Assembly (NCBI GenBank): GCA_964035575.1
Contig: OZ037836.1
Location: 682,001 to 746,000 of the forward strand
Direction of reading: 5' to 3'
DNA length: 64,000 bases
From: Rhynchopus sp. YZ270_cl-10
Lineage: Eukaryota
The position numbers were made by a program, and so were the translations under genes. Shown piece by piece: positions 1 to 26,180 of this stretch. The stretch's first letter is position 1. Every line of letters starts with the position of its first letter. The notes under the pieces are model-generated. The model was not told the DNA's origin. It made no database searches and worked only from the letters and a program-made list of their open reading frames with translations.

Positions 1-309
1 GGGCATGATAAGAGATTCTTTGGTTCGATGAACCGAAGCCGCACCGTGCTGAGCACAAGCTAATACCAAGCAATGTATCCAGATACCTTTACTGGAACGG
101 TGATTACGTGATTAAAAAGGGGGTGGTGGTGGAATTGATAGAGTGGAGAGGGGGAAAATCTAAACGTCCACTCTCTGTTGATTCTAAAAATGGGTAGGAA
201 AAATCGCGAATAGAAAAAATGGGGAAAATGATGATAAATAAGAAACGAAATATTTTTTTCGTTGATCGCACCGTTTGTGAAGTGTGTAGAGACAAAATCA
301 AAATTTTAT

Positions 310-645
310 TTTTCCTTCCTTCAAAACTTCACACACAACGCTTTTGGTTTTTGGAAGACACACAAGGTGCCAGGTTCTATGATATGCACGGAACCACCCT
401 GCACCTGTTTGTCATATATATTGTTTCCCGTGCAATACATGAGGAAACGTTTCGCGTCGAAACTAGGGCTTTTTAAAGCTTTTTGATAAAAATTAGCGAG
501 ATACAAAAACCAGCGCGTGTGGAAGAAAAAAGGAGAGGAAGATATTTTTTCTGATTCAAAGTGGTGTTTACGTTTTGGGTACGGGGCGGAGAATAAAATC
601 TGTTCGATAAAAGAAACGCGAGCTTATTGTTTTATCTTGTTCAAA
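310..645. repeat. Dispersed repeat family A (ccttcaaaacttcacacacaacgcttttgg...)
   Basis: Near-identical copy at ~25855-26180; partial copies at ~36188-36340 and ~37520-37740/37905-37955. Confidence 0.85.
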
Positions 646-890
646 AAAAATTCTGGATAAGTTGTGTCGTGTTTACATCGCTCTCACCAAAAATTCGGGT
701 ACACACACACGATTTCATTTCCTTCCCTACAACCTTTGCAAGGCAGTTGTCTCAAATACAAAGTGACTTGAAATACAAAAAACCCCTTCTGTGCACTGGT
801 ACGTGACCAAGCACACTGGAATAAAGGAGAAGTTGAAAGTGAAAAAGAATGGCATTTGACCATTTTTGTTGTGATTAAAAAAAAGCTGTT

Positions 891-3800
891 CTAACGCTTG
901 CCACGAGAGTCAGACTTGGAGTACGACTTGGGTTCGGAGTCGGAGTGGGTGTGGTCAGGGGCACGGCGGCACTCACAGAAGGCCTCCCAGCTGTCCTGGG
1001 CCTGCTTCTGGCAGTCGGAGGTCTTGTCGGACTTCTCTGGGGTTGGTGTGGGTGCGTCGTCGGTGTGGGTGTGTCCGTCGTGGTCCTTGTTGCACAAGTG
1101 GACGTGGTGCTGGTTCCGCAGGTAGTACACCGGCTCAACAAGCTGGTCGTGGCTCCACACCACACCAAAGACTCCGTGCCAGCCCGCAACAGGGAGGTCG
1201 AGGAACTTGTGGATGGCCTTGGTCGCAAGGACGCCGTCGAGCGAGAGCTCGTTGAGGCAGGTGCCGTGGAAAGCACCGACATAGGCGGCGCGCAGGATGT
1301 CACCGATGTAGGCAAAGGCAGGGCGGTAGTAGATGCTGTCGACCCAGTGCTCCCTGTCCTGCACGCTGTCCTCCTTCAGGTTCTGCACAAGGAACACGTC
1401 GCGGTCTGCGCCCCCGGTGAGCTTGTCCTCATCGAAGGAGCGGTCGCGCTTCTCGTAGGCCTCCATGCGCTTCCAGTGGTCGCTGTCCAGCACAGAGAAG
1501 AAGGACCGGCGTGGCCGAACAATCGGGTCCGACACAAGGCTGTTGGTCTGGCGCCACATCGGCACCACCGCCACCCCGTTGCTGCCCGACAGCATGTCCT
1601 CCCCGTCCCCGCCGTGCATCTCGTCCGACTGCGACGCACTCTCAGGCTCGTCGTGGCCGTACACCCCGCGGCCCTTGTTGTGGTAGAAGGACAGGCCCTT
1701 GAGCGACGCGTCGAAGCTCACGTCGCCCAGCTCCTGCGCGCGTGACTTGAGTGCCGGGCGTGTCACACGGTCCTCAATCACCTTCTCCACAAAGTCGAGG
1801 TGCTCGTTCAGGGCCGTGTTGATTCCGCGCAGCCCGTACTCCGCCGACGGGTGGAACGGTGCGCCCTCAAAGGTGGCCACAACCACAAGCCCGTAGTCCC
1901 CCAGGAGCGAGTCCTTCCCGTCCCCGCCCTCAATCGTGTCGCAGCCCCACTTTGTGTACGGGAGGCTGTTCCACTCCCAGCGCTTCTTCAGGTTCCTGCC
2001 GTCAATCGCGTCCGACGCCCAGAAGTCGCGCTTCACGTGCATCGCAAGTGTCTCCTTCAGCGTCTCGAGGAGCTCCTTGAACTCGTCCTCGTCATCCTTG
2101 CTCTTGCTTGCGCTGTTCTTCCCAACCTGCGTGAAGTAGTTGCTGTCGTGTGTGTGGTTCAAGAAGAGCCCCTTCGCCATCAGCAGCAGCGAGTCACCCA
2201 CAACCACATCGTCACCAGCCCCGCCGTCCAGCTCGTCGTTCGACAGGAACAGCTGGACCACAGGCGCCACCTTGCCGCCACGCCTGTTTGCGTACAGCTC
2301 CTGGATGACCGAGTGGTGTGCCTCAAACAGCGCCATCCCCACGTCGACCGCCACAGTCTCGTAGTCCGCGTAGGTCAGCATCAGCTCCTTGACAGTCTGC
2401 TTCAGCCCTGTGTAGGCAAAGTGCTCGTGGTACACAACGTCCGTGAAGGCCTCAAGCCTGTCGCCTGCAAGCGTGTCGCTCCCGTTCCCACCCGCCAGCT
2501 TGTCGTTCCCGCTGTGCACAGCCGTCGCAAGGGCGGCCACAGCTGCCTCGTCCGTGTCGGCCAGGAACGTCCCCGCGTCGACAGACATGCGGGCCAGGCG
2601 GAACTGCAGCTCCCCCCAGCGCGCAGCAGTGCGCTCGCGCATCTCGTCCAGCGCATCGACACGCAGGTTCAGCAGGGCGTGGTGGAAGGCAGCGTCTCCA
2701 ACCACCACGTCGTTTCCGGCACCGCCCGATAGGTCGTCGTTTCCAGACACCTCCTGTGCATGGCGCAGCACGTCCGGAACAATCGCCGCAAACGGACGCA
2801 CCACAGCATCCGCCGCCACAAGCTCCAGGTCCCCGGCAGCCACAGCGTCAAGCATCATCATCATGTCCTCGGGCACAAGCGTCCCAAGTGCCGCGTCGTC
2901 AACAGGGCGCAGCACAGAGGCACGCGACGTCTGCTCAGGCGCAATCCACATCGGGATGTTTGTCACCGCCCCGTAGAAGGGGAGGTCCACCTTCCACGCC
3001 TCCTCGTCGCGCGCCGCACGCAGCACACGCACAACAGTCGTCACAAGCGGCAGGCACGAGTCGTAGTGGTACACAGACGACACAGTGTCACCGTACACAA
3101 AGTCGTCCCCGTCGCCCCCGTCCATCACATCATCTCCACGCTGTCCAATCAGCACGTCGTCCCCAGCGTCACCGTGGATCTCGTCGTTCCCAGACTCCAG
3201 CAGGCGCAGCCCCGCCAGCGCCGTGCGCCACGGCCTGCGTGTGCTCTCGAACTCAAACTTCTTCGTCTCCCCGTCGCGCTCGTAGCCACCGAGGGCCAGG
3301 AGCAGGTCTGCGTCCAGAAGAGCCGTTGCCTCCTCGGGCGTGAAGTGTGCGTCGCGCCATGTGTCCACCCACTGGTGCGTCAGCATCGCCTGCTCCTCAA
3401 GCACCACGTTCCTGTGCCACGCCCCGGTCTTCGTGTTCACACGCGGCTCCCCGTCCTCTGTGAAGGCACGCACCACGTGGCCCATGTCGCCAAGCACCAC
3501 GTCCGCCCCGGCACCGCCACGCAGCACGTCGCTCCCGTGCTCACCGAAGACCTCGTCCTCACCGTCCCCGCCGTCCATCACGTCGTTACCACGCTGTCCG
3601 TGCAGGATGTCGTCCCCGCCGTCACCGAGGATCGTGTCGTTCCCGGCCACCAGGTCCACGTCGTCATAACGCTGCACAAGGCGCACCACGTCTGCGTAGC
3701 GTGCTGCACCCGGGTAGCGCTGCCACTGCAGGTCGTTCACGTACGGCGGCGGCGACGCGTACATCTGCGGGTGTGCTGCAGGCACAGCCGTCGACGGCAC

Positions 3801-6800
3801 CGGTGTCGGCGCCGAGCACGCGTACGTCAGCTCAAACCCGAGGTCGTGTGTGTAGCCGTCGCTCGCGAACCGCACAAGCACGTCCTGTGTGTAGGTCGAG
3901 CTCTCGGGCAGGTCCCAGCCAGACAGCTCCCACTCAAGCGCAAGGGACCCGTTGCTGGCCACAGTGTACAGCGACACGGTGTCGTAGCGGCGCTCCGTTG
4001 CAAACCGCGACCACTCAATGTGCACCGAGTCGCCAATGCAGCCGGTCACCCAGCACTTGTTCTCGTTCGGGCCGTACTGTGCCTCGCCGTGGTCTCTTGT
4101 GTGTGTACGCGAGTCTGAGTCAGAGTCAGAGTCCGAGTTTGAGCTTGAGCTCGAGTCCGGCTGCGGGTGGTTCACCGCCCCCATCTGGTCCGCAAGCAGC
4201 ACGTAGTCGTCGCAGAAGAGCGGGCGCACCACAGGCGACGGCGTCAACGGCACAGGCACAGCCTCCGCACGCGGCACGTACAACGCACGGTCAATCAGAC
4301 CGTTGTCACCCAGCACCACGTCTGCCTCAGACCCACCGTGGATCACGTCGTCACCGTCCACACCGTCCAGCACGTCGTGTCCTCCGGTGATGTCGTCCTC
4401 ACCCTCGTCTCCGAAGATCACGTCCCCACCCTGCTGGCCGAGAATCATGTCGTCTCCCTTGCCACCGTGGATCGTGTCGTTCGCACCGGCGTCGCCCGCC
4501 TGCGTGAAGATCGAGCGGTACTGGTGCAGCACACGGAAGGACCCGTTGAAGAGCGCGTGGTCACCCAGAATCACGTCCTCGTCGTCGCCTCCGTGCAGCG
4601 TGTCGCTTGCAGTCCCACCGAAGAGGTAGTCCTCCCCGTTCTCACCGAAGATCGTGTCGTCACCTCCACGGCCCACCACAGGCGCCGTCGTCCGTGCCCA
4701 CAGGATCTCGTGGTCCGCACGGCGCAGCTCCGCCTCCGCATGGTCTCCAAAGAGCATGTCCATCCCGTCCCCACCCGAGATCGTGTCCGCCCCCTGCTGG
4801 CCCATCACAAAGTCGTCCTCCGTCCCGGCAGCAATCGTGTCGTCCCCACCGAACTCAGACTCCACGAATATCGTTGTGAACGTGCGTGTGCCGTACGTCG
4901 CATCGCGTGCCTGTGCAATGTGTCCACTGTCGCCGAAGATGAAGTCCTCGTCGGCCCCACCGAAGAGCGTGTCTGCACCCACACCACCCATGATGTAGTC
5001 CGCACCCTCGTCGCCGCTGATCGTGTCGTCTCCGCCCGACGTCTCCACCGTCGACGTGATGGTCTGCTCCTTGCGCAGCACCACGCGTCCCTGGTCTCCC
5101 AGCAGCCAGTCGTCCCCGGCGTTGCCTGTGATGTTGTCGTCTCCCTGCCCACCGAGCACAATGTCGTTCCCAGATCCAGCCACAATGTCGTCGTCCCCAC
5201 CGTTGAACTCCGCCTCCGTGAACAGCGACTCGAGCACCACGTCCCCCTTCGCCACAGAGTACCAGGTTCCGTGGTCGCCGAAGACAACGTCCGCATCTTC
5301 CCCAGAGTGCACGCTGTCCGCACCTGCGCCTCCAAACACGTGGTCCTCACCGTCCCCCGTCGTCACCACGTCGTCACCACCGTGCTCTGCCGAGATCGAC
5401 ACCTCGACAATCGGGAGCCCGCCCGCCGCCACAGTGATGCGACCAAAGTCGCCGAAGACAGTGTCTCCCCCGCCTTGCGTGTGCACAACGTCCCCAACCT
5501 GGCCACCGAACACGTAGTCGTCGTCCGCCCCGGTGTCAATCGTGTCCGCACCCCCGTTCTCTGCAGCCTCTGTCGCCGTGCTCTCGTACACAGCCCCGGT
5601 CACCGTCAGGTTGATCGCACCGTGGTCGCCGAAGACCACGTCCGCACCGGCTGCCGTCGTGATCTCGTCCGCACCCTGGCCACCGAACACATAGTCCGCC
5701 CCGGCGTGCGTGTCAATCACGTCCGCAGCCCCGTACTGCACGTCCGTGCTGTTCGCAACACGCACCGTCGTCGTCATGTCCAGCGCAAACAGCATCGGCG
5801 CCACGTGTCCTGCACGCGCACGCGAAGTCTCGCCGTCGTTGTCGTTCCAAAAACTAATGTCATCAAGCGTCGTTCCGTTCTGCGTGCCCCAGGCAATGTT
5901 CACAATCCCGTGGTCCCCGAAGACCCAGTCGTCCCCGTCCCCACCGGTCACGTTGTCAACGCCGCTTCCTCCGAAGATGTAGTCCGCATCGCCCTCACCG
6001 GCAATCGTGTTCGCACCCGGCACCACAGAAGCATTTGTAGACACCGCCACCGCGTGCGTCGCGTTTGCTGTGTACGACCCGTAGTCCCCGAAGAGCACGT
6101 CCGACCCGTCCGCACCGAAGATCTCGTCATCCGCGTGTCCGCCCATCACCACGTCGTGCCCGCCCTCGCCGTGCAGCACATCGTCGCCTCCGGCAAGCGT
6201 CGTCGTCGTGAATGCAGTCACCTCCGTCGAGATGCTCGGTGTCACAGACCCGCCAGCGTGGTCCCCGAACAGCCAGTCGCTCCCGTCGCCTCCCCACAGC
6301 GTGTCCACGCCCTGCCCACCGACCAGGATGTCGTCACCACGCTCCCCGAAGAGCACGTCCCCAGTCCCGGTCGCCTCCTCCATGTCCGTCTCCGACGACG
6401 CAAACGAGAAGTCCCCGGCCACAAGCGCCGTGTACACACCTGCGTCACCGAAGACCACGTCGTCGCCCTTGCCGGCGTACACAGTGTCCGCCCCGGCACC
6501 ACCAAGCACAATGTCCGCATCGTCCCCGGCATAGATCAAGTCGCCCTCACCTGCGTCGCGGATCGCCGTCGCCACAGACGTCACCAGACGCACCGCACCC
6601 GGGTACGCAAACACCACAGACCCGTGGTCACCCACCACAACGTCTGCCCCCGCCGCCGTGTTCACAGTGTCCACACCGTTTCCACCGAACACCACGTCGT
6701 GGCCCGCTGCCGTCTCGACCACGTCCGCCCCGCCCGCACTGCTGCAGGCAGACACCGCACGCGTTAGGTCCCCGTGCGTGAAAGCCGCATACCCGTAGTC

Positions 6801-9800
6801 CGCGAACACCACGTCCGCACCCTCATCTGTCGTGATCGTGTCGTTCCCGTCCCCACCAAACACCAGGTATGACGCAATCCCGACAGCTGTGATTGTGTCG
6901 TTCCCACCCGCAGCGCAGTGGTCCGTGAACGCAGACGACCGCAGCGACAGCACCCCGCTCTGCGCTGCCGTGCTTTCCTCAGGCACACCCACCGTGTCCT
7001 TGCCCCCGAGAATCACGTTCCCAGTGTCGCCGAAGATGATGTCGTCCCCGAGTCCGGCAAGGATGGTGTCGTCGTCGAACCCACCCACAATCACAAGCGG
7101 CAGCGTCGACGTCGATGCGTCCACCACGTCGTTCCCAGCCTCCGTGCCGACCACGAAGAATCCGTTCACCTTGTCCGCAAGCGCCACCGTCACGTTGTCC
7201 GCGCCAGCACCCGTGAAGAGCTGCGTGATCGTGCGCACGTCCTCCGCCACACTCACGTTTGCTTCAGACCCGTACGTCGACGACACCACAACCGTGTCCG
7301 CGTGGGGAGACAGCCACAGCGTCACCCCGCGCGAGTAGTCCGCACCCGTGTACACAATGTCTGCAGGCGCAAGGCCGGTGATCAGGCCCGCCGTCAGCGC
7401 CACAGCAGGCTTCCCTGTCGTCGCAACGCTGTCAGACACAAGCAGGCGCGTGCGTCCAGAAGACCCGCCATCCAGCGTCAGCAGCGCCTCCACGTAGTCG
7501 AGACGTCCCTCCACCTTCTGCACCGTCGTTGCCGCTGCGTTGTTCAGCACCAGTGCGTCCGACCCAACCACGAACGTGTCGTCCCCGGCATGCGAGCGCA
7601 CCACCGTCGGCACCGACGTTCCGCGGATGTTCAGAGTGTCCGCCAGGTCCGTTGCCAGGTCAATGTCCACAGACTCCACACCGACGTACAGCACCCCGGC
7701 CCGCATCGGGCGCGAGTCAATGCGCACAAAGTCCAGCAGCTCCTCCTCTGCCCCGACCACGTTCGTCGTGTCCAGCACCATCGCGCCCGCAGTTCCCTCC
7801 ACCGCAAGCTCACCGACGTAGCGCACCACGTAGCCCCACGGCAGCCTGTCCACGGCAAAGCTCTGCGCACACGGCCCGATACCCGCAGTTCCACAGTCCG
7901 CCACAGGGAACACCGCCGCCTGCAGGTCTGCCTCCATCGTCTCCGCAGACGTTCCGACGGCAAATGTGAGCGAGTGCGCCACACTGCCCACGTTGAAGCT
8001 CAGCGTGAACGACCCGCTTGTCCCGCGCACAGCCACAACCTGCACAATCACAGACGAGCTGTCGCGTGTTGCGTACATCCCAAGCCCGGTCAGCTCCGAG
8101 CGCGTCAGGAACCCGGCGTCCCCGAACGTGTTCCCCTGCGTGTTGTTCACCCACATCCAGTCCGTCCCCTCCCCACCGTACGCGACCACCATGTCCTTGA
8201 TGCCGCCCAGGAGGCCGTCGCCAGCCCCAAAGGTGAAGGTGTCGTTCCCAGAGGACCCGTTCAGCACAACCGGTCCGTGCGCAGCCAGCACCGTGAAGGT
8301 GTCGTCGTCTTTCCCGGCGTTCACGTAGGTCGCCCCCAGGTGGGTTCCGTTCACAACCACGTCGTCCTTTGCAGGGCCCAGGTTCACAACCACCACCTCC
8401 ATGCTTGTGTAGGTCACACCCCCGAGCACAGTTGTCCCCGCCAGCATGCGCGACTCTCCCATGCCCATTCCGGTGATGCGCCCCTCCGTCAGCGTCACTG
8501 TTGACGAAAGGAATCCGCCCGTGTTCTCCACCACAAGGCGGTCCACCTGCTGCTCCTCGCGCACCGTCAGCCACGGGTTCACCTGCACCGGGTAGGCATC
8601 GATGTCCACCTCCCCCGGGTACATCACCGCCTTCAGTGTTGTCACCGCACCGTCCGCCTCTCCGCCACCGACCGTCAGCGGACCTTGGATCTGGTACGCA
8701 AGCGCCGGCTGCGACGCGAACTGCTGTGTCGTGTCCCCCTGGTCAATGATGCCATCCTCTATCCCTTGCACAAACACCATCACAGACTCTGTGTAGTTCC
8801 ACACGTCAAACACAATCGACGAAGGCGACACAACAACCTGCTTGCGTGTCAGCGACGACTTCCCCCACACCTGTGACGCCACAACATTCACGTCGACCGT
8901 CACCGCCCCGACCGGCGCCTTCGTCAGGTACACGTAGTACGCATCCAGCCGTGACTCAAACAGCTCCGTCTTGCCTTGAGTCTCAAGCACCACAAGTGCA
9001 GGTGCGTCGTTGTCGAGGATCTCCACGTTCACCGCGTTCGCTGCCAGGGATGCAGAGCGGAAGAAGGTGTTCGACGCCGCCACCGTCACCTCGTGGTTCA
9101 GTGCCGCAAAGTGGAAGCCCTCCACAAGCATGTCGTTCACCGCAGTCACACGCACCGTCTGTCTGCACGGGTTCGCCGACTCGGCCGAGAACGAGAACGT
9201 TGCCGGCTCCACAACCACCTGCGCCGCGTCGTAGCGCACTGCAATGTCCACGTCCTGCGGGCGTGCCTTCGCCACACATGGGCGCAGCAGCACCTCGTAC
9301 TCGACGCTCGTCCCAACCTCCCCGAGCCCGCTCTCAGACACACGCATGCCCGTCGTCGTGTCCGGCGTCTCCAGGATGTACAGCTCGGCCTGGTCCGCGT
9401 CGATGATGCGCACCGGCACAGTCGGGATCTTCAGCGTGTCGTAGCCGTCGCGGTTCGACAGCTGCACCACAGTGTGTCCGACTTGCACCACCTCGTTCCC
9501 TTCGAGGGCGTGGTCCTGCACCACCGTCACCACAACCGTACGCGGCACATACCAGTTCTGCGCCGTGAAGATGATCGTGTTCGGCGACACCGTCACCGAT
9601 GCTGCCCCCGGGATCTCCGACGGTGCAGCAGGATTAGGAATCGTCACCGTGACACTGTCGTTCGCACCAGACCCGTTGATGCGGTGTGCCATGAGCAGCT
9701 GGTACTCACCCGTCAGTTCCCCAGACGACCCCTCCACCAGCTGGATCTCCGTCGGCACCATAACCGCAATCGACGCGACGTCCGTGTCTGTGATGTACGC

Positions 9801-12800
9801 CGTCACACCGTGCGCCTCAAGCCCGTCGTACGACGAGTCTGTGGCAGACGAGATCGCGTGCTCCACAATGCCGTTGTGTCCACGCAGGTCGTTGCTTGAC
9901 ACAGGCACCGAGTAGCGCGGTGTGATGTACACCACGTCGCTTCCGAGGCCGCCGAATACGTTCGTCTGCACGTGTGCCGCTGTCGACATCACGTAGATCG
10001 TGTCGTCTCCTGCCTGTGTGTTCAGCTCCACAGACTCAATCCCGACAAAAGTGATGTGCAGCCCAGCCCCGTAGATCCCGTCCTTCGTGATCACAAATGT
10101 GTCCTCCTCATTCGTTCCAATCGCCACCAGTGTGTCGAACCCAGGTCCCCCGTCAATAGCGACATTCGCGTTGATGGTGTAGAACACCACATCGTCGCCC
10201 TCATTCGTCGCAACATCCGTCTTCTTAAGCGCAGGGTCAGGCTCCACCGCATTCGCAAGCGCAAACGCACGCACCGTGAAACGGTCGTTGTCCACACCTC
10301 CGCGCAGCGACAGTGGACCCAGGTTCCGCATCACCACAAACGTGTCCTCACCGCTCTCTCCGTTGCAGGTCATTTGCTCCCCGTTTCCGTCGCTCAGGAA
10401 GCCCTCCGTCGTCTCGGTTGTGTCAAACGCGTCCTCCGGTATCGACATGCTCCCCTCCACACGCAGCGAGTTGTACAGCTGTCCAATCAAGAAGCGGTCG
10501 TTTCCGGCCCCACCGTTCTGCGTCACAGTCCCCACAGTTCCGTCCGTGATGAACGAGTCGTCGCCCGCAAGTCCGTTCACCGTGATGCCACCGTTGATCG
10601 TGCGGTCGATGTCCAGACGCTCCGCCTCAGACCTGTCCGAGTGCATCAGCGCAATGAAGTTCTTCCTGAACAGAAACGTGTCGTCCGCAGCAGTCCCGCT
10701 AACCACAAGCACGTTCACCTCTGCACCATTGTTGTTCGTGTACCCGGAGTCCGACAGCTGAATGCGCGACTGCCCTGTCCCAGAGAACCCGATGCTGTAC
10801 GCATCGTTTCCGTTCTGCCCGTCCAGGTGCAGCAGCTGCGAGATGCGGTTCAGCACAACGTCCCCCTCCGTCGTCACAGGCACAGTCATGTTGTCCTCGC
10901 CGCCCCCGGCGTTCACCCAGGTCTCTCCGCTCACACCGCTCACCGTCAGCGTGTCGTCCTTCGTTCCTCCCGTCAGCACAGTCTCCCCGCTGTGTGTTCC
11001 CGAGATCGTGAAAGTCGACGGCTGCTGCATCGGCAGCTTGACCTCAACCTTGACACAGGCGCTGTAGACCACACCGTCCGCAGACATCCCGAGCCCGGTC
11101 ACACGTGTTGCCGTCAGCTCCCCGACGTTTCCGGTTGCAGTGTCCATCGAGTCGTCAAGCACAAGGGTTGCCACGTTCGACCCCGACACCTTCACGGGCG
11201 ACACAATGTCCGACAGCGACCCGCTTCCGACAGTGATCGTGTCCGCACCTCCGGCCCCCTGCACCTCCACAGACGCACCAGCCGGTGTCGAGTCCACCAC
11301 AAACGTGTCCACGCCGCTCGTCAGCGTCACACGCAGCACATCAATCGTGCTGAAGGTAAGCTTCCCAGACATCCATGGGAGCAACACCCGGGTCGAGTAC
11401 AGCATGCCCGCACCACCCACAGACGAATGCACGTACAGCGTGTCCTGGCCGTTTCCGCCCACAACGTTCACGTCCCCGGCCATGGCCGCCCCCGTAGTCA
11501 CAACCACCTTGTCGTTCCCGCCGTTCAGGTACAGCGACAGCTTCGTCCCCGCCGTCGACCCGGTGATGGTCACCAGGTTCGCCTGGCCGTTCAGGTAGAT
11601 CGTCACCTCCTCAAAGTTGCTGTACTGGATGCCCGTCCCAGACATCCCGAACCCGGTGATCTTCCCATCCGAAAGCGTCCCTGCCGGAAGGTCGGTGGTG
11701 ACACCCGAGAAGTCGAGGATCAGCCTGTCGTAGCCGCTGTCGTCACCTCCGTCGAAGACTCCGCGCGACACAGGGTTCTCCACCAGGATCGTGTCCGAGA
11801 ACTTCCCTCCGCTTCCGGAGTAGGAGAGGAAGTCCGTGAACTCCTGAACCTGTCTGTTGTCGTCCTGCCCGGATGCCGGCGGGACGCCGAAGAGCACCTC
11901 GACCTCCTCCGACCCTGCCGCCCCGTTCACGTAGCGGATTGTGAAGTACTCGCCCTTGTCCGCCGTGTCGCCGGTCACCCTGCGCGCGGCACGCGGACCC
12001 ATGTTCAGCTGCAGCGTGTTGCTTCCCACAGTCGCCAGAATCGGCAGTGCCGGCGGCGTCGTGTCGAGCTCCAAGAAGCATTTCGACACAGAGAAGCGGT
12101 ACACACTCTCCCAGCGTCCACGCGGCCAGCAGCCGTACCACTTGCACTTCCAGTTCACGAACGGGTTGAACAGTTTGACGCTGAAGGAAGCGGACGCACA
12201 CATTTTGATCTTGATGTTGAAGATGTCGAGGAACGACCCGGCCTCAACAATGCTCTTGATCTCGCTGAAGCGGATCTTCCCGTCGTCGTTCGGGTCGTAT
12301 AGGTCAATGCTCCCTGTGAAGGACAGCTTCCCAGACCCACTCAGCTTCGCAAGCAGCAGGTTCAGTGTCGCTCCGACGCGCACAGTTCCTGCTGAGTACA
12401 GCTCGGGGATGTCGACACCGCCGGTTCCGGTCGGGATGTCCGTGTCGGACAGGAAGAACCCGTCAAGCGCCAGCTCCGGCTTGCCCTTCGCAATCGCACG
12501 ACGGATACCAGACGTGTCGTAACCCATCGACACACGCGCACGGAACTGGAACGAACCGTAGAAGTCGACCACAATGATACCTGCCGCAACTGGGAACCAG
12601 AAGTCAATCGTCACGTCAATCTCCATCACAGGTGTCTGCACCACAAACAGGTCCACGTCCTTGCCCGTGATGAGCCCCATCACTCCCAACGGAGACAGGA
12701 ACGGGAGGTTGAAGATGGCGTCCGGGTCCGTCAGCGTCGACATCAGTTTCTTCATCTTGGATGACCCGGTCGACGACGCACTTGACAGCGGCTTCTTGTC

Positions 12801-21800: not shown

Positions 21801-24800
21801 CGTCGCGCCGTCTGGTGTCACTGCTGTCCCCCACAGCTGCACACCCGGAGAACAGGAATACCCGGCCGCAAAGACGTACCCATCCGGTGGGCACACCGAC
21901 ATCCCGAACGACGTGATCGTCATGTCCGGCATCTCCGACGGGATGCTCAGCCCTGTCGTGCCTGTCTGCGCCTCGAACCAGGCAGCGACGTCCGCCAGTT
22001 GCATGTCGCACGTTGCCTCACCACGCAGCGCGACGCCGTCTGTGGTGGAGTACACCCCTGATAGAGAGATGTCGCACAGATCCAGTGACACGTGCATCTG
22101 CGCCTCTGTGAGCGGGAGGTCGAACTGCAATGACGCCTGTGTGACGGTAACGTCGATACCGAAGGGGTGCACCCAGTTCTCCACCACCGCACCAAAGTAG
22201 CCGCCACCACCGGCATACGCACCGCCGTACACAGACAACGCCACTTCGTCCGCAGCAGACGTACCCCACTTCAGGCGCCCCTCCGCCTCGAAGAAGGGGC
22301 TCACGTCCTTCGTTGTCCCTGCTGTGAACACACCCACTCCGATCGTTACGCTGTCGAGCATCAGCGTCACACCGCCTGCAGACGACAACAGCACTGCACT
22401 GGGCAGCGGCAGGGGTGCGCGGAAACGCAGGTACGCATCAAAGTTCAGTGAGTTCAAGCTGTGCCACGTGGGCACCACTGCCGTCACCGCAAACGGTGCC
22501 GCGAAGCCCCCTACATGAGACACCAGCTCGGGCACAAAGGTGAACACGTCCCCAAGCCCCACGGTGCAGGAGATGTGCACCTCGGCCGTGCCCTCGGTAT
22601 CGTGCAGCACCAGCAGACGCTGGTCCTCAAACGTCAGCCCGCCCAGCACAGGCAGGAGCGGTGCCGTCCCCTGTTGTGCGCGGAAGACCGCAAAGTAGTA
22701 CTCCCCAACCACAAGCGCGTGCAGTGTCAGCGCCACGTCGTTGCCCGAGGCCAGCGTCGCCACAGCAGCGCCCGTCTTCGCCTCCGCCGCAGCAAACGTT
22801 GTGTCCATCTCGGGGAACAGCTGCAGCATCGCAGTGTACTCAGACGCGAAGGTGTCTCTGTCTGCAGCCGTCAGCCCCGTCAGCGCCTTCAGGCCCAGCG
22901 CCGTCTCCAGGTCCGTCGCGTCTGTCGACAGCACTGCGGCCTCGCGGTGTTTGGTTTTTTTTGGTTCGTACAGATGCTTGAAATAGATATGAACGTAGAC
23001 GTTCAACATGACAGCAGGGCGCAACGTGCCCATCAACTCAAATCTCTGCTTTGCAATTACCCTTGTATGCGCCTCAATAGTGTACATCAGGGTCTTGGGG
23101 GCAAAGCGCGCACCACCTTCCCACAGCTTTGTCACAAGCTCTCTGTTGGGACCCACTATATTCTTGTAACCCTGCGACAGCAGCGTCTCAAAGGTAATCA
23201 TGTGTGAGTTCGTGTGAGACGTTCCGAGCATCAGGTTGTTAGGGTTGTCCGTCGGCCTGCCAGCAAGGCTGTGTCCCACTCTGTGCAGCCACTCGTATTT
23301 TTGGTTCAATGCTGCTCCATTCTTACTGCAAGCTTCTGCCACGTCTTTGGCCGAGTACCCCCCCATTGTTTTGTGGGTGTCGATCCTCTTTGCGCCCTTC
23401 TTGCCATCAAGGTTATACTCGAGCGTTTTGACGTATTTATTACGGTCTTTAGTTACTTTTACTATGCTGTGGAGTTTCGTCACTATGTCTTTGCATTGTT
23501 GCACATTTGTCTTGAAGTTCATCTCGTCCTCATCCTCCTCGTCATTGAATGGTGCGGCCTTGTACCTGTCTGTGACGACATTCTTCTGGTAGATCGAAAA
23601 TTCTTGTCCTGTAAAAACTAACACCCAGGGATGTTGGTTCGCCTGTGGTTCGGTGAGGTACTCAACTAGCTGATTACTGTAGCCCGCGTCCTCTATCCTT
23701 TTCTTCATATCGTTCTTAAATTTGTCCTGCTGATCCGTTGCTATTTTGAGGTAGACCCAAATGACTGCGTCAGATGCAAAGCGCCCGAAGGGGTTGTATG
23801 AGAACCCACCAGACGACGCCGACGCAGGGACGTCTTCAGGGAACGTCGTGATGATTTGCTCGTAGGCGGCATCAGGGAGGGTCAATACTTTGTCGACAAA
23901 CTTCTTGTCCACTATCGGTGCTGCCTTCACCTTCCCGATGAACGGAATATCGTACACGCCGTCAGGATTCCAAAACATGACAGGTTCCTCATCCTTCCTC
24001 ATGTCTTTAAGTGTGGTGGGTGGGTCCAATGGTTCATTAGCTATCTTCTTTTTCGCAAGCGCCGCAAGCGCCTTGAGGGAAATGAAGTAGTCATTTGTTT
24101 TGAAGTAAATAGTGTTTGAGACTTCGGGGAAGACATAAGTCATGAAGCGGTCAGGGTCGTCCGTTGTGAACATCTTTTCGAAGTCGTACCCTCGTGGTTC
24201 AACATCGTGAAGAGCACTAATTACTTCGTTGTCTTGAACCCACTCAGCCTTAAACGTCCGTGCCTCATCGTAGCGCCCTCCGGCTGTGAATTCGATTTGG
24301 ATATGCTTCTTGAATTCAGCCCGGCTCATTGCCTTCAATAGAGTTACAGTCTCAAAAATTAACCCTCCAGATTCTAAGTCCTTTGAACCAACCTTAATAG
24401 AGAAGTTATCGTGCAGATGAATAGCTAATACATCACTCTCCAAGGTGAAGGTCACTCTAGTGCCTTTTGGAATTTCATGATGCCCATACCCAAAGTCAAA
24501 CCTCGTAATAAGAACCTTGTTGTATTCGTGAAATGTGTCTCTGTCGTCCGTTGGGATCAGTGTCTTTGAGAGTGTGTTGATGTCGTCAATATATGTCTTC
24601 ACATCGTCTTTGTAAAGTGCAGCGTTTTCCTCTGCGGAGCCTCCCTTCATGGATTTGGGTGCTATACACACACCGACGGAGTCCTTAGTCTGTTCGAAGC
24701 AGGAGGTTTTCGGATGCTTAATTGTGAATGCATTTGTGGGTCCTTGACTCCATTTCCCTTCTTTGTGCGAGCGTGCACACACGGAGGGGGTGCACTCCTT

Positions 24801-24965
24801 CTTGTTTTCATTCCACGAGCAAGAAAAAACCCCAGAGAGAGGAGGTTTCTCCTTCAAACATCCCCCCTCGGTTTTTAAACTCTCGCACGTTATCAAGCCC
24901 CCCTGTTCGTTTCTACGAACATAGCAATTGATCGCCACCGAAAGGCACGCAAGCAGCGGCAACAT
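891..24965 (-). CDS. Giant (8024 aa) secreted multidomain protein: signal peptide, His-Me/non-specific endonuclease-like domain, bacterial-type giant adhesin body, Calx-beta-like repeats, many RTX-like Ca-binding GGxGxD repeats, inserted CUB domain
   Basis: Uninterrupted 24-kb ORF with ATG at 24963-24965 and hydrophobic N-terminus (MLPLLACLSVAINC). Dozens of GGxGxD/D-x-I-x-G-x-x-G-x-D repeats (~1400-7200, 8200-11800). VSPNTIIFTAQNW...DHALEG Calx-beta-like units (~8750-9800). EWLH..GHSLAG...NLMLGT..TN motif at ~23195-23300. Confidence 0.93.
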   Translation of the reverse strand: MLPLLACLSVAINCYVRRNEQGGLITCESLKTEGGCLKEKPPLSGVFSCSWNENKKECTPSVCARSHKEGKWSQGPTNAFTIKHPKTSCFEQTKDSVGVCIAPKSMKGGSAEENAALYKDDVKTYIDDINTLSKTLIPTDDRDTFHEYNKVLITRFDFGYGHHEIPKGTRVTFTLESDVLAIHLHDNFSIKVGSKDLESGGLIFETVTLLKAMSRAEFKKHIQIEFTAGGRYDEARTFKAEWVQDNEVISALHDVEPRGYDFEKMFTTDDPDRFMTYVFPEVSNTIYFKTNDYFISLKALAALAKKKIANEPLDPPTTLKDMRKDEEPVMFWNPDGVYDIPFIGKVKAAPIVDKKFVDKVLTLPDAAYEQIITTFPEDVPASASSGGFSYNPFGRFASDAVIWVYLKIATDQQDKFKNDMKKRIEDAGYSNQLVEYLTEPQANQHPWVLVFTGQEFSIYQKNVVTDRYKAAPFNDEEDEDEMNFKTNVQQCKDIVTKLHSIVKVTKDRNKYVKTLEYNLDGKKGAKRIDTHKTMGGYSAKDVAEACSKNGAALNQKYEWLHRVGHSLAGRPTDNPNNLMLGTSHTNSHMITFETLLSQGYKNIVGPNRELVTKLWEGGARFAPKTLMYTIEAHTRVIAKQRFELMGTLRPAVMLNVYVHIYFKHLYEPKKTKHREAAVLSTDATDLETALGLKALTGLTAADRDTFASEYTAMLQLFPEMDTTFAAAEAKTGAAVATLASGNDVALTLHALVVGEYYFAVFRAQQGTAPLLPVLGGLTFEDQRLLVLHDTEGTAEVHISCTVGLGDVFTFVPELVSHVGGFAAPFAVTAVVPTWHSLNSLNFDAYLRFRAPLPLPSAVLLSSAGGVTLMLDSVTIGVGVFTAGTTKDVSPFFEAEGRLKWGTSAADEVALSVYGGAYAGGGGYFGAVVENWVHPFGIDVTVTQASLQFDLPLTEAQMHVSLDLCDISLSGVYSTTDGVALRGEATCDMQLADVAAWFEAQTGTTGLSIPSEMPDMTITSFGMSVCPPDGYVFAAGYSCSPGVQLWGTAVTPDGATIEVRASVDGGRLDFMVTVADFVVTDAIVLEKAHLGFSLGGGVPAAVTLSGALALSSVSLWLEGEYEAGSIFLKVGLDGVTLADVVALGAELPGGSLFSVPDVTLPNLELSVCTFKADARCKKGVSVRWVRSPVSPGSGSPNAESCTNVAVRYQQNIKEGVAAVNSALAGVKARMLSQKFTLVASAADLSFMNEPLDEMIGFTEGLSDQFDDLNDLTMADLTASLPNGISVGCQVDTTAFNLFLTVAVSATGNVSETVDLSELPAADLEALGLTFSDASVSLSGSVSVAGTISITVNPAGPVVSVSGLSAEVTATGAVATTVDWKDAGSVGIAGSVSVGMTVPVTFPTSTSLSDFVAKLGEVRIGSLTGELSASLAVAVAVDAVPVGQLPTPVLMVYDNNVFDAVPPVVTVDADITPMESTIVELLRQLGSFDIDLGALGLSGLELPNVDVSALVGGVPDMLKLAPVAEQYFLLFADEEASVDGSSFPTFSGLVTFLKENPAVPQAATSVSASGVNMTGGWFPEAGEVALNIRMELGSTLASESFGGSISSVLGDMQALTAVFDLIGATAPEQSLAVPDFSADVSFSGDVVLDFTVGLKTEFINNGDLTGSALAGNAFLRVNDLSAEVKVAVDPINFEADLLLSQFVVRDGSFEVALGLRADFSAAAAEEVPGAAVSASTVEAVTEITVLELLSGGSTAMLDFVKQLNLEVYATLDAVVPVELTAGFAGKDVSLSPIVELHDADLLSGGLPPFSLDIDLNFLVSSQPAGDGGKGDSGNELDSVTGALTDMLEGISGISLDTASIPKISNLLSGLSGKVSFSTVLAEYLDLQVKFRELANGLGPDLVLETVGAEALVSNTAFNTDLLGRLQARFPTVFVNFTSGLTDSNTGEDFSVLDYLRFVQVEFGLAETVSSADVAFGKNELVWYLAVDVDYSLTKKNAWALLNLLELTGYTSDSAGYPVDSLLARFDPAAHLVPLQLKLGLTSLSTFNLGTLGSYVANSAPTLGVNVNFNKAIFDLLVVAYPDFATKYGNVTVGDLLPMNPLTGVVFDWRNYLTEVGGVLGLSPTASLDVSSVAALFGKRPTVMGFVRFLKSRLLNGMSTGLTIGGSGTSFSADLITTGGRWELAATLGLHFDTGALKPTEVVTALEDALSGLFDAIGQDSVVGSIGSIGNSLVQRLSGLDTFLSFSAAAQVAVEAGIDIKPLIDGTGSPQLFLRVQQFNMSISAAITDFTTPMDFGGSFDFTSIVNGEIMFSAVASGVNASNPLVLLDTSAGVDDFTITPLTDAIRLGGSLVAEVELAGGPLDSSLFLGVEDLALFDSTAPKFTVDAEIPSKMMQVVRDGLVAMGDVGRDVNGFDALTTTLPLMNRTLNDVLKTGETGPNWGDFLIWDKVLDQLLADPAYAGCLDGSTSCPRARETVQMFTEGMANLTQGSFTSDTGDNGNGAPAAFVNGGMVGKEFQLAFGLNGNLEVLVTPPLSELIDDDDIDFTGTGVLAVRINFGFEFEVKVDTTNGATSVTTDDIKLCLNNFTMGLTIGADVSATASIGILSASVSDGTGVLAAHFEGSMNSGAPLKLSEVTKENFAFTKSATLDACLPFSAAVGSQDLGELAGATGAEKPQVCVNDSNLFDSTAPTVQTLYMDRFMDFRGLSPIQIMGIVRGLINVVQEYRESPVFDLALPFTDIDVGDMLDFADTLTAALSKKMVKVQDAGDRTTLELCLEGDALPTGWNVPETKESKAFRTSVSSKVMSLVLNEELEVEVALDTDVLAAAANVSMIAVHLNEKLYKAGLGQSAVASVAEDGTDALQLCTKASIKATDLRVQVKQKQTGNSAYTESDEAVAATTLLGFTSGDIKEAPRVAAFSSIPELVVVLAEAAGVPPELLSYTYGPSAADPSQYELLFALKLEVALPTPMTSLLLGAEVEPLFSVNASAEIALTTDVEIAFEIGARMGSSAGNLSVTANIPAAQQFANFTLASEQSFNLSLDRVLYTVVLRPADSFYDELVHQLGVLNATLGGAKQVWVRNYQNTTFLIQTLGVRRLEVTTSAEFEALTGLASDKAKALLFAPVVRNLAFTADMMLTVSEINLAATLAVLEAEAYGGSGYIGVTAIAAFGTSGTAMLLGDLRDAIIEDPFSQIAANATVSAELDVEVSVGIPSLGSVSGTVGVVMNPPFFVELKENFSLPNASTDFEVTIVGADLPDFKNLTLAEIVALVADGVDLIFGNTAADPPVEGLLSDLPLLEEEIPLISFTPRTMVTQVQTVLATLEVLLANETGSVERIELLIEEALGLPAQDGCTGSCLVGFTFADSKLLLEVNFEASPTLPQLSFDINLKEMMGWAGISIDNDLEELLGEFIDLEAQLAFALSGGASVTLQLGVDLSSRPYRMFVGGGTALQVNVLANATGSLTLTLGPVDFGVEDGFVSVTNGTDHHAAYLRYGLTEGQNYYLDEGFSNIVQSFSLTSAGMLRAELPITGIDTMVVEIPRLVDFLSKNESNGKVVVFPGPNINSILSSIASPLKDLNPIAAILKDKKALLKGVDGMFTKIDFAITAADGVLGSMNVPIVKNKIREVIQEDFIGKFQTQLRGELESALSQVSEDSSMAQILRDTMDEFFSDLGILKGDIPIVIRKKDGTVLPALEADGSLISGFPLSEADAVEWDVTLGKDILFAAPFDFDLALDELPLKLAAEGGVQLLVGWAFKLFFGMSVSRGFYLNVQETEMAVYASLKLPGLKATGDLFILEASVTNRDDTTVLLGQVAVDIGDVDGDGYLTFKEIKSGGASLVRANAAFEVVVGMDLSLGLSSSEGLPRFTTSLYTYYGATWEQKAKKGTAAGDTLALGTAKETVPDQGPAPGTLLMVDVGLDLGEFVTNILRPIFTKLNGFLGPFRPILEKLQKPLPVVSDLAGRDVSLLELPEILLNGLLGSGAPVRGSVKNVLAYLSAIVQVIDLTLAVVAVIEELETWQGNLKISFGNWQINKDGFSRYTGALPAGYTTTGRYAEVQDDKKPLSSASSTGSSKMKKLMSTLTDPDAIFNLPFLSPLGVMGLITGKDVDLFVVQTPVMEIDVTIDFWFPVAAGIIVVDFYGSFQFRARVSMGYDTSGIRRAIAKGKPELALDGFFLSDTDIPTGTGGVDIPELYSAGTVRVGATLNLLLAKLSGSGKLSFTGSIDLYDPNDDGKIRFSEIKSIVEAGSFLDIFNIKIKMCASASFSVKLFNPFVNWKCKWYGCWPRGRWESVYRFSVSKCFLELDTTPPALPILATVGSNTLQLNMGPRAARRVTGDTADKGEYFTIRYVNGAAGSEEVEVLFGVPPASGQDDNRQVQEFTDFLSYSGSGGKFSDTILVENPVSRGVFDGGDDSGYDRLILDFSGVTTDLPAGTLSDGKITGFGMSGTGIQYSNFEEVTIYLNGQANLVTITGSTAGTKLSLYLNGGNDKVVVTTGAAMAGDVNVVGGNGQDTLYVHSSVGGAGMLYSTRVLLPWMSGKLTFSTIDVLRVTLTSGVDTFVVDSTPAGASVEVQGAGGADTITVGSGSLSDIVSPVKVSGSNVATLVLDDSMDTATGNVGELTATRVTGLGMSADGVVYSACVKVEVKLPMQQPSTFTISGTHSGETVLTGGTKDDTLTVSGVSGETWVNAGGGEDNMTVPVTTEGDVVLNRISQLLHLDGQNGNDAYSIGFSGTGQSRIQLSDSGYTNNNGAEVNVLVVSGTAADDTFLFRKNFIALMHSDRSEAERLDIDRTINGGITVNGLAGDDSFITDGTVGTVTQNGGAGNDRFLIGQLYNSLRVEGSMSIPEDAFDTTETTEGFLSDGNGEQMTCNGESGEDTFVVMRNLGPLSLRGGVDNDRFTVRAFALANAVEPDPALKKTDVATNEGDDVVFYTINANVAIDGGPGFDTLVAIGTNEEDTFVITKDGIYGAGLHITFVGIESVELNTQAGDDTIYVMSTAAHVQTNVFGGLGSDVVYITPRYSVPVSSNDLRGHNGIVEHAISSATDSSYDGLEAHGVTAYITDTDVASIAVMVPTEIQLVEGSSGELTGEYQLLMAHRINGSGANDSVTVTIPNPAAPSEIPGAASVTVSPNTIIFTAQNWYVPRTVVVTVVQDHALEGNEVVQVGHTVVQLSNRDGYDTLKIPTVPVRIIDADQAELYILETPDTTTGMRVSESGLGEVGTSVEYEVLLRPCVAKARPQDVDIAVRYDAAQVVVEPATFSFSAESANPCRQTVRVTAVNDMLVEGFHFAALNHEVTVAASNTFFRSASLAANAVNVEILDNDAPALVVLETQGKTELFESRLDAYYVYLTKAPVGAVTVDVNVVASQVWGKSSLTRKQVVVSPSSIVFDVWNYTESVMVFVQGIEDGIIDQGDTTQQFASQPALAYQIQGPLTVGGGEADGAVTTLKAVMYPGEVDIDAYPVQVNPWLTVREEQQVDRLVVENTGGFLSSTVTLTEGRITGMGMGESRMLAGTTVLGGVTYTSMEVVVVNLGPAKDDVVVNGTHLGATYVNAGKDDDTFTVLAAHGPVVLNGSSGNDTFTFGAGDGLLGGIKDMVVAYGGEGTDWMWVNNTQGNTFGDAGFLTRSELTGLGMYATRDSSSVIVQVVAVRGTSGSFTLSFNVGSVAHSLTFAVGTSAETMEADLQAAVFPVADCGTAGIGPCAQSFAVDRLPWGYVVRYVGELAVEGTAGAMVLDTTNVVGAEEELLDFVRIDSRPMRAGVLYVGVESVDIDLATDLADTLNIRGTSVPTVVRSHAGDDTFVVGSDALVLNNAAATTVQKVEGRLDYVEALLTLDGGSSGRTRLLVSDSVATTGKPAVALTAGLITGLAPADIVYTGADYSRGVTLWLSPHADTVVVSSTYGSEANVSVAEDVRTITQLFTGAGADNVTVALADKVNGFFVVGTEAGNDVVDASTSTLPLVIVGGFDDDTILAGLGDDIIFGDTGNVILGGKDTVGVPEESTAAQSGVLSLRSSAFTDHCAAGGNDTITAVGIASYLVFGGDGNDTITTDEGADVVFADYGYAAFTHGDLTRAVSACSSAGGADVVETAAGHDVVFGGNGVDTVNTAAGADVVVGDHGSVVFAYPGAVRLVTSVATAIRDAGEGDLIYAGDDADIVLGGAGADTVYAGKGDDVVFGDAGVYTALVAGDFSFASSETDMEEATGTGDVLFGERGDDILVGGQGVDTLWGGDGSDWLFGDHAGGSVTPSISTEVTAFTTTTLAGGDDVLHGEGGHDVVMGGHADDEIFGADGSDVLFGDYGSYTANATHAVAVSTNASVVPGANTIAGEGDADYIFGGSGVDNVTGGDGDDWVFGDHGIVNIAWGTQNGTTLDDISFWNDNDGETSRARAGHVAPMLFALDMTTTVRVANSTDVQYGAADVIDTHAGADYVFGGQGADEITTAAGADVVFGDHGAINLTVTGAVYESTATEAAENGGADTIDTGADDDYVFGGQVGDVVHTQGGGDTVFGDFGRITVAAGGLPIVEVSISAEHGGDDVVTTGDGEDHVFGGAGADSVHSGEDADVVFGDHGTWYSVAKGDVVLESLFTEAEFNGGDDDIVAGSGNDIVLGGQGDDNITGNAGDDWLLGDQGRVVLRKEQTITSTVETSGGDDTISGDEGADYIMGGVGADTLFGGADEDFIFGDSGHIAQARDATYGTRTFTTIFVESEFGGDDTIAAGTEDDFVMGQQGADTISGGDGMDMLFGDHAEAELRRADHEILWARTTAPVVGRGGDDTIFGENGEDYLFGGTASDTLHGGDDEDVILGDHALFNGSFRVLHQYRSIFTQAGDAGANDTIHGGKGDDMILGQQGGDVIFGDEGEDDITGGHDVLDGVDGDDVIHGGSEADVVLGDNGLIDRALYVPRAEAVPVPLTPSPVVRPLFCDDYVLLADQMGAVNHPQPDSSSSSNSDSDSDSDSRTHTRDHGEAQYGPNENKCWVTGCIGDSVHIEWSRFATERRYDTVSLYTVASNGSLALEWELSGWDLPESSTYTQDVLVRFASDGYTHDLGFELTYACSAPTPVPSTAVPAAHPQMYASPPPYVNDLQWQRYPGAARYADVVRLVQRYDDVDLVAGNDTILGDGGDDILHGQRGNDVMDGGDGEDEVFGEHGSDVLRGGAGADVVLGDMGHVVRAFTEDGEPRVNTKTGAWHRNVVLEEQAMLTHQWVDTWRDAHFTPEEATALLDADLLLALGGYERDGETKKFEFESTRRPWRTALAGLRLLESGNDEIHGDAGDDVLIGQRGDDVMDGGDGDDFVYGDTVSSVYHYDSCLPLVTTVVRVLRAARDEEAWKVDLPFYGAVTNIPMWIAPEQTSRASVLRPVDDAALGTLVPEDMMMMLDAVAAGDLELVAADAVVRPFAAIVPDVLRHAQEVSGNDDLSGGAGNDVVVGDAAFHHALLNLRVDALDEMRERTAARWGELQFRLARMSVDAGTFLADTDEAAVAALATAVHSGNDKLAGGNGSDTLAGDRLEAFTDVVYHEHFAYTGLKQTVKELMLTYADYETVAVDVGMALFEAHHSVIQELYANRRGGKVAPVVQLFLSNDELDGGAGDDVVVGDSLLLMAKGLFLNHTHDSNYFTQVGKNSASKSKDDEDEFKELLETLKETLAMHVKRDFWASDAIDGRNLKKRWEWNSLPYTKWGCDTIEGGDGKDSLLGDYGLVVVATFEGAPFHPSAEYGLRGINTALNEHLDFVEKVIEDRVTRPALKSRAQELGDVSFDASLKGLSFYHNKGRGVYGHDEPESASQSDEMHGGDGEDMLSGSNGVAVVPMWRQTNSLVSDPIVRPRRSFFSVLDSDHWKRMEAYEKRDRSFDEDKLTGGADRDVFLVQNLKEDSVQDREHWVDSIYYRPAFAYIGDILRAAYVGAFHGTCLNELSLDGVLATKAIHKFLDLPVAGWHGVFGVVWSHDQLVEPVYYLRNQHHVHLCNKDHDGHTHTDDAPTPTPEKSDKTSDCQKQAQDSWEAFCECRRAPDHTHSDSEPKSYSKSDSRGKR

Positions 24966-25025
24966 GAGTGCACAGCACTCTACTCGTATGTGTTGTCTTG
25001 CAAAAGTGTTTCACAATATCGTGAC

Positions 25026-25085
25026 CTGTATGCAAAAGGGGTTTGTTGTGAGGCAGGAGAAGAGCTGGAAAGGGAAGAGGGGAAA
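25026..25085 (-). promoter_or_regulatory. Putative (trans-)splice acceptor with polypyrimidine tract for the giant gene
   Basis: Minus strand reads cccctcttccctttccagctcttctcc...ccccttttgcataCAG|gtcac, 60 nt upstream of the ATG. Function inferred from euglenozoan SL trans-splicing. Confidence 0.45.
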
Positions 25086-25161
25086 GATGTCAATAAAATA
25101 TAAATATTCCTTTTACAGCATCTTCCACGGCACGCCTAAAGTCCTCATCAACGCAAGCAAA

Positions 25162-25743: not shown

Positions 25744-25854
25744 CAGTTATCTTTTATTTCCCAACCGAACAAAAATGATAAAGCGTGAAGACAATAAAAG
25801 CAAAGAAGAGTAAAATGAGGTTCTTGGGGGGGAGAATAACAACAGTTCCTTTTA

Positions 25855-26180
25855 TTTTCCCTTCCTTCAAAACTTCACACACAACGCTTTTGGTTTTTGG
25901 GAGACACACAAAGGTGCCAGGTTCTATGATAAGCACGGAACCACCCTGCACCTGTCATGTTGTTTCCCGTGCAATATGGAGAAACGTTTCGCACTCGAAA
26001 CTAGGGAAAGCTTTTTGATTAAAAAATGAACGAAGCACAAAAACCAGCGCGTGTGGAAGAAAGAAGAAAAGGGAAGATATTTTTTCTGATTCAAAGTGGT
26101 GTTTATGTTTTGGGTACGGGGCGGAGAATAAAATTTGTTCGAAAAAGAAACGCAAACTTTTTGCTTTATCTTGTTCAAAG
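25855..26180. repeat. Dispersed repeat family A copy
   Basis: Colinear match to 310-645. Confidence 0.85.

Follow-up and report, generated by a model that had tools for sequence, protein, structure and literature searches.

A giant RTX-repeat-bearing gene in the diplonemid Rhynchopus sp. YZ270_cl-10 that appears to join two host gene families in frame

The locus and its giant open reading frame

A window of 64,000 nucleotides from Rhynchopus sp. YZ270_cl-10 (GCA_964035575.1, contig OZ037836.1, positions 682,001 to 746,000, forward strand; coordinates below are those of the window) was analysed. An earlier note on this DNA had placed at 891..22950 an intronless bacterial-type gene for a giant RTX protein, gained by an old horizontal transfer. 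An open reading frame (ORF) scan of the window, which was free of any N, returned a single minus-strand open frame at 891..25010 (8,039 codons stop to stop); translation from the first ATG, at 24965, gave 8,024 amino acids, and each of the other five frames held 41–364 stops. The position 22950, proposed as the gene's end, is a step in third-position GC content (GC3) from 0.58 (residues 1–675) to 0.77–0.82, and the gene start and signal peptide lie 2 kb further, at 24965. Features of the gene and its flanks were assigned as follows, where families A and B are the two parent families described below and P numbers are protein labels of this analysis.

891..24965, minus: complete ORF, read as chimeric, 8,024 amino acids plus stop (ORF scan)
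25026..25100, minus: polypyrimidine tract and AG, likely spliced-leader acceptor (composition)
24921..24965, minus: predicted signal peptide, residues 1–15, same in P0184 (sequence comparison)
22941..24965, minus: family-A variable N-terminal part, residues 1–675, GC3 0.58, Cys-rich start, 41–54% identical to P0184/P0185
22962..23453, minus: nuclease-like domain, residues 505–668 (H561, N577, N586, E593), resembling Endonuclea_NS_2, below the Pfam threshold
21420..22940, minus: family-A beta-rich region, residues 676–1182, multicopy, 67% identical to P0185
21375..21419, minus: fusion joint, residues 1183–1197, where the signal peptide of family B itself is missing
12066..21374, minus: family-B scaffold, residues 1198–4300; modelled part of beta meanders and helices
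13476..13523, minus: EF-hand-like Ca-binding loop (Pfam EF-hand_1 at the cut-off)
9666..10868, minus: most conserved Gly/Asp-rich block, residues 4700–5100, 36–45% identity to bacterial giants; used as tree block
8676..9758, minus: about three Ig/Calx-like units (by eye; no Pfam match)
4296..7118, minus: main RTX nonapeptide array, residues ~5950–6890, differing in copy number from that of P0001
3822..4070, minus: CUB-like insert (Pfam E 0.008, below the cut-off)
894..3668, minus: C-terminal RTX blocks with mostly diplonemid-specific inserts and a hydrophilic end
304..650, plus: host dispersed repeat A, copy downstream of the giant ORF
25850..26184, plus: host dispersed repeat A, copy upstream of the giant ORF, very high summed depth

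Several properties attributed to the protein in the earlier note were re-examined. RTX-like repeats are abundant, as it had stated: HemolysinCabind stretches (Pfam) numbered 13 + 8 = 21 within 894–9410, and 37 RTX nonapeptide-like motifs were counted against a shuffled mean of 0.7 and maximum of 4 (200 shuffles). Its long acidic regions hold for residues 5901–8024 (D+E 17–18%) but not for the rest of the protein (11–13%), and its Calx-beta-like units, having no Pfam Calx-beta match, are reduced to a resemblance. Host-like codon usage was borne out for residues 676–8024 (correlation of 0.83–0.85 with the adjoining host receptor gene, the sole comparison gene). No transmembrane segment or GPI-like tail was found at the C-terminus of the giant protein, and no internal sequence repeat was detected in residues 1200–4400. 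The signal peptide was judged from a 13-residue hydrophobic start and from the identity of the whole 15-residue leader to that of the paralogue P0184 (41% identical otherwise); the leader claimed before belongs to the fused-on family A. A polypyrimidine tract (maximum 87.5% C/T in 40 nt) was accompanied by an AG 61 nt 5' of the ATG, and the AG, at ~25026, is likely a spliced-leader acceptor. The window copy has no intron, as had been reported, whereas three relatives appear to have one near residue 6640, their predictions ending at the same site in the manner of intron read-through. Because introns occur in only ~41% of Diplonema papillatum genes (PMC10161547), an intronless giant ORF is unremarkable.

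Repeat A does lie on both sides of the gene, at ~304–650 and 25850–26184 (87% identical, same orientation), but it marks no boundary of the gene: because a third copy lies at 36171–36342 and summed contig depth reached 37,000–71,000 against ~100 on unique contigs (run X1), it behaves as a high-copy dispersed host repeat. The region upstream of the giant gene (25162–25637) was 90% identical to that upstream of the neighbouring gene (29853–30323).

Parent families, relatives and origin

Judged by sequence comparison, the giant ORF is an in-frame chimera of family A (residues 1–1182) and family B, a giant RTX-like gene (residues ~1198–8024). Full-length orthologues of family B all begin at residue ~1190–1200 of the giant ORF, most with an evident hydrophobic leader, and residues 1–1182 have no counterpart in any of them. 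Over those residues P0184, with its identical first 15 residues, was 41% identical; P0185 was 54% identical over residues 219–1182 and then runs on into a different beta-rich region. Family A is multicopy and is composed of a signal peptide, a nuclease-like H-N-N-E motif and a beta-rich region. A loose end at 21422 in run X1, when translated by hand, carries on in the manner of P0185, which shows that the organism also has unfused copies of family A. Unfused copies of family B are most likely present as well, since deeper contigs over 21144–21337 carry P0001 residues at 4–6 times the depth of unique contigs.

The joint was spanned by a 171-nt contig over 21361–21528 in runs X1 and X3 (two studies), and the GC3 step at 22950 was bridged (22869–23226) with 0 differences in 4/4 runs; the assembly itself may have been built from the sequencing runs used for joint and depth. 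Two observations weigh against the joint as assembled: over its 171 nt the spanning contig departs from the window sequence at 14 letters and 3 gaps, and no contig with the window's exact joint was among the 16 of 283 pieces examined. The fused DNA is nevertheless very probably real rather than an assembly artefact. Since the two host families are seen joined in sequencing contigs, the chimeric contig that had been named as a possible objection is improbable. The gene is a genuine nuclear one.

For residues 3600–5100 the five best matches were eukaryotic proteins (50–90% identity), the next being at 29–44%. Transcriptome homologues were found in Rhynchopus euleeides (EP01061 P031867) and Diplonema japonicum (EP01064 P037205). 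A representative search gave 1,657 matches, of which the best 150 were examined for eukaryotic members; these included D. papillatum KAJ9468835.1, Flectonema neradi and the amoebozoan Pyxidicula operculata, as well as metagenomic proteins (P0085, P0146, P0148) that matched EGF or, weakly, PAN/PSI and were counted as eukaryotic from those modules and their Cys content. Homologues of the RTX gene are thus present in four named diplonemids (R. euleeides, D. japonicum, D. papillatum and F. neradi). The label 'Iron-regulated protein FrpC' of KAJ9468835.1 is automatic, and only the repeats would seem to match FrpC here. Diplonemid orthologues share a common scaffold over 6,800 amino acids (R. euleeides 54%, D. 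japonicum 44%, D. papillatum ~23–39%), but none has the 1,190-residue N-terminal extension of the window protein. The CUB-like insert occurs in P0001, P0002 and R. euleeides but in neither D. japonicum nor D. papillatum. F. neradi P0134 combines the scaffold with a CAP domain and has no RTX repeats. Insertion of EGF or PAN/PSI-like modules into the scaffold was observed in the eukaryote-like P0085, P0146 and P0148.

In GTDB, 442 of 459 pattern matches were relatives, and 76 of the best 80 belonged to 11 named phyla. One bacterial relative (P0028) carries Calx-beta PF03160. No bacterial match to residues 1200–2400 was found among the sequences fetched, and the conserved block had none in viral contigs or PDB sequences. 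An HlyD-family gene follows the bacterial giant in 8 of the 14 loci scanned (Actinomycetota, 0/5). At loci L043, L044, L061, L067, L068, L076, L079 and L039 GAF-HlyD and M50-peptidase-HlyD genes lie downstream of the giant ORF. The 78 ORFs reachable downstream of bacterial giants contained no ABC ATPase motif; HlyD-type neighbours without such a motif suggest an atypical export system.

A FastTree analysis of block 1 (251 rows) placed 20 eukaryotic or eukaryote-like rows on one side (98). A subset of 54 rows (18 eukaryotic and 36 bacterial, picked for closeness and spread) under C20 supported the eukaryote side at 91/79, the diplonemids at 95/85, and the window protein with three ENA proteins and R. 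euleeides at 95/90. This grouping, together with the CUB-like insert, points to a Rhynchopus-like diplonemid as host. Support for the eukaryote side was 98 from block 2 alone, 99 from both blocks, and 99 under C20 with 36 rows. F. neradi P0134, having no block 1, was placed in the block-2 tree only. Of eight Cys-rich candidates for eukaryotic membership, P0029 and P0112 fell among bacteria and were not taken as eukaryotic.

Several bacterial acquisitions, brought together in the trees by long-branch attraction, would be a competing account of origin, and one compatible with other readings of the gene. The eukaryotic branches are indeed long and compositionally odd, a forced grouping of diplonemids with three Actinomycetota (block 1) was not rejected (approximately unbiased (AU) test, p 0.056), and the distribution is patchy, as it often is for genes transferred to diplonemids (bioRxiv 10.64898/2026.01.29.702485, section 14). 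However, the identical split came from two separate blocks, C20 retained it at 99, and forcing the diplonemids with three other bacterial rows was rejected on both blocks (p 0.0003), the two tests addressing different alternatives, each picked after the trees were seen. Region 2400–2700, moreover, matched D. papillatum, Pyxidicula and P0046 and 0/239 other ids, many of them too short to hold it. We regard repeated acquisition as rather doubtful, and the RTX family as likely an ancient bacterial acquisition shared by eukaryotes rather than a recent one. The trees are unrooted; the bacteria-to-eukaryote direction is drawn from how widely the giants occur in bacteria, from their HlyD-family neighbours and from the part that RTX repeats are known to play in type I export (by definition, RTX proteins are bacterial and type-I-secreted; PMC3034196). 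No bacterial donor emerges from the trees. Among diplonemid transfers, 51/93 are reported to be common to other eukaryotes (bioRxiv 10.64898/2026.01.29.702485).

The evolutionary part of the earlier note can be read against these results. Conservation of its block at ~9900–12700 was confirmed, and its bacterial type-I-secretion ancestry agrees with the HlyD-family neighbours. Rerouting to the endoplasmic reticulum (ER) is plausible, full-length eukaryotic members having hydrophobic leaders and many bacterial members LEPR-XLL-type leaders. An old, ameliorated transfer stands, but not one into the host lineage alone, since diplonemids, the amoebozoan and others group apart from bacteria. The distribution among eukaryotes, which if broad and vertical was to count against transfer, proved wide but patchy, so that this objection applies in part.

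Cargo, scaffold and reading of the gene

The nuclease-like residues 505–668 were 61% identical between the window and P0185, with H561, N577, N586 and E593 present and lined up with the pattern in several PF13930 matches. The His...Asn...Asn...Glu pattern has catalytic roles in Endonuclea_NS_2 and NucA-like nucleases. With a two-sequence profile, the best hit of 401 genomes (E 1.3e-4 per genome) was a gene whose own match to PF13930 falls below the threshold. This cargo is likely a nuclease. Four results weigh on the other side: the atlas assignment to Endonuclea_NS_2 was weak (0.75), a profile of the fetched members scored the cargo at 5.4 against 4.4 for the best shuffle, Pfam gave no PF13930 match in the region at E up to 10, and the fold model reached a predicted local distance difference test (pLDDT) of 36 from a two-sequence alignment. 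The region had no Pfam, PHROG, NCBIfam or PDB sequence match, and searches of viral, phage and metagenome loci returned none. Residues 676–1182 had atlas matches of 0.95–0.96 to bacterial clusters, with low recognition, and just 2 marginal matches in 151 Actinomycetota genomes.

Residues 3640–4330 were modelled from 25 sequences (pLDDT 68) as long beta meanders and helices, most long strands having one hydrophobic face. Foldseek gave no match at E<=0.001, bridge-like lipid transfer and beta-barrel proteins included; the best VIA Z was 8.6 with a root-mean-square deviation (rmsd) of 28, and the matches were of a generic beta-sheet kind. The protein has a single hydrophobic 19-mer stretch, inside a predicted long helix.

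The reading we prefer, at a probability of about 0.55, is that of a diplonemid nuclear gene in which two multicopy families have been fused in frame and whose product would be an ER-secreted, Ca2+-stiffened extracellular scaffold bearing a likely nuclease. The sequence data show an uninterrupted frame, the two parent families with their joint, the RTX arrays, and eukaryotic homologues that group together; beyond these we propose the following course. The ancestor would be a bacterial giant with type-I-like export that entered eukaryotes once and had its leader swapped for a signal peptide. Ca2+ in the ER lumen or seawater could fold the repeats into beta-rolls, as motif conservation suggests, and these may build a long rod in a cell coat, mucus or secreted matrix. 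Lineage-specific modules would then have been added (CUB-like in Rhynchopus-like forms, EGF, PAN/PSI-like, CAP), and recombination between two gene arrays would have added the nuclease-like cargo here, whose simplest use may be the cutting of extracellular DNA of prey or biofilm. A bolder extension is offered only tentatively and is more doubtful than not: after a single early bacterial entry or later protist-to-protist transfer, the family would serve as a secreted modular platform in Discoba, Amoebozoa and other protists, and the diplonemid nuclease recombinant would be an expressed 0.8-MDa carrier turned on prey or competitors, in effect the eukaryotic equivalent of a polymorphic toxin system.

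The main alternative is a fusion that is real but non-functional, a decaying by-product of gene-array recombination beside which only unfused family-B copies work. Derived changes numbered 205 in the fused copy and 106 in P0001 (p 2e-8; 4,640 aligned columns), and codon differences beside the joint were non-synonymous in 19/20 cases against 9/24 inside (Fisher p 9e-5; the lists are a best-supported subset of differences). This excess fits decay as well as adaptation, and the 4–6-fold deeper P0001-like copies would suit a redundant fusion. On the other hand, the frame has stayed open despite the 205 lineage-specific changes, with neither stop nor frameshift in 8,024 codons; the leader and the splice-acceptor-like site are intact; the joint is spanned by a second fused variant or by an allele; and P0184 and P0032, whose contigs have the same reported length (437,458), hint that the families are linked at another locus. 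We consider decay unlikely.

A contact weapon like MARTX or CdiA, whose repeats would bind prey or host while amphipathic sheets enter the membrane and the nuclease is delivered, is less likely still. The pairing of a conserved giant with a nuclease-like cargo that is variable and low in GC, and the dominance of one-hydrophobic-face strands in the model, would suit it, as would a match to the MspA porin, although this was weak, just above the Pfam cut-off, and was treated as compositional. RTX-toxin models, however, match the repeats alone (127 bits against a cut-off of 1000), pore fold matches were non-significant with rmsd mostly >24 Å, ordinary family members lack the cargo, and a small immunity-like ORF was not seen, though no search was aimed at one. 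Contamination, misassembly or recent symbiont transfer, to which the bacterial-type repeats, a GC content of 63% in the giant ORF against 42% in non-coding DNA, and the absence of the exact joint from the pieces examined might point, is very improbable, contamination being largely refuted by diplonemid genome and transcriptome orthologues at 54–84% identity against 23–40% for bacteria, by the eukaryotic CUB-like insert, by host repeats on both sides, and by overlapping zero-difference contigs that extend from the coding region into upstream non-coding DNA.

Elsewhere in the window, an element at 40800–44778 lies within long terminal inverted repeats and holds two minus-strand ORFs (41217–42254; 42383–44263, ending in C2H2-like fingers); no transposase family match was found in Pfam, NCBIfam or PDB, and it is possibly an unclassified DNA transposon. 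Near-perfect long palindromes at 44832–45957 and 52106–53240 have arms of 542 and 564 nt, 98–100% complementary, and are mutually 74% alike. A predicted membrane-protein gene is duplicated, the copy at 28436–29998 having an in-frame TAG where that at 38187–39725 has GAG. A tandem array of ~25–30 units of 54 nt with open frames occupies 34358–35955, and at 62017–63999 a Laminin-G-like domain precedes a hydrophobic segment, after which comes a cyclase-like tail (by eye; no Pfam match).

Comparison with known systems

A literature search covering few subscription journals turned up no account of eukaryotic members of this giant family. RTX and FrpC had 0 mentions in PMC10161547 and PMC12697944, whether in the main text or in the supplements searched, and RTX had 0 in the main text of bioRxiv 10.64898/2026.01.29.702485, whose supplements may list this gene. 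The nearest mention is one supplement row of PMC10161547, in which two diplonemids have gained an orthogroup named 'putative Ca2+-binding hemolysin' that may be the giant family. The locus thus combines a eukaryote-shared family of likely bacterial ancestry with a locus-specific fusion. If the reading is correct, a conserved eukaryotic branch with members of 6,000–8,000 amino acids in at least two supergroups would show that RTX repeats work without type I export, and the chimera illustrates a route by which giants acquire cargo. The protein would be a candidate coat, adhesion or feeding protein of abundant, poorly understood marine predators, and is taggable in D. papillatum.

Under the definition in PMC3034196, the window protein has the repeat content of an RTX protein (21 HemolysinCabind stretches). 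It is RTX-repeat-bearing but no RTX exoprotein in the strict sense, because its host is eukaryotic, its leader is N-terminal and hydrophobic, and no type I secretion genes (ABC, HlyD, TolC) were found among the flanking ORFs scanned in the window. Scanned in pieces, it missed the curated cut-offs for RTX pore-forming toxins, FrpC and serralysins (NF033943, 127 and 95 against 1000 bits; serralysin, 49 against 500).

The LEPR-XLL-domain giants of Planctomycetota, Verrucomicrobiota, Pseudomonadota, Actinomycetota and others are similar in size, have colinear blocks (residues 3640–4330, 4700–5100 and the RTX arrays) and are 23–45% identical to the window protein. They differ in their leader, which is replaced here by a hydrophobic one: the LEPR-XLL motif (regex) was present in many bacterial matches and in neither the window protein nor the eukaryotic members. 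The window protein also has more Cys (0.4–0.65% against 0–0.1% in LEPR-bearing matches), many N-x-S/T sites, a CUB-like insert and no HlyD neighbours. The function of these giants would become testable through a tractable eukaryotic homologue.

RTX adhesins and S-layer proteins of the LapA and MpAFP type are giant, Ca-binding and acidic, with Ig-like units and RTX repeats, and are likely rod-like. The window protein is like the RTX adhesins in size, RTX repeats, Ig-like units and acidity, but lacks a long identical Ig-domain array, has no internal repeat in residues 1200–4400 and would take another export route. From polymorphic toxins with Tox-NucA or Endonuclea_NS_2 domains (PMC3482391) it differs in that the cargo is N-terminal, that the Pfam threshold was missed and that no immunity gene was identified; it shares with them the architecture of a variable nuclease-like domain on a large secreted carrier.

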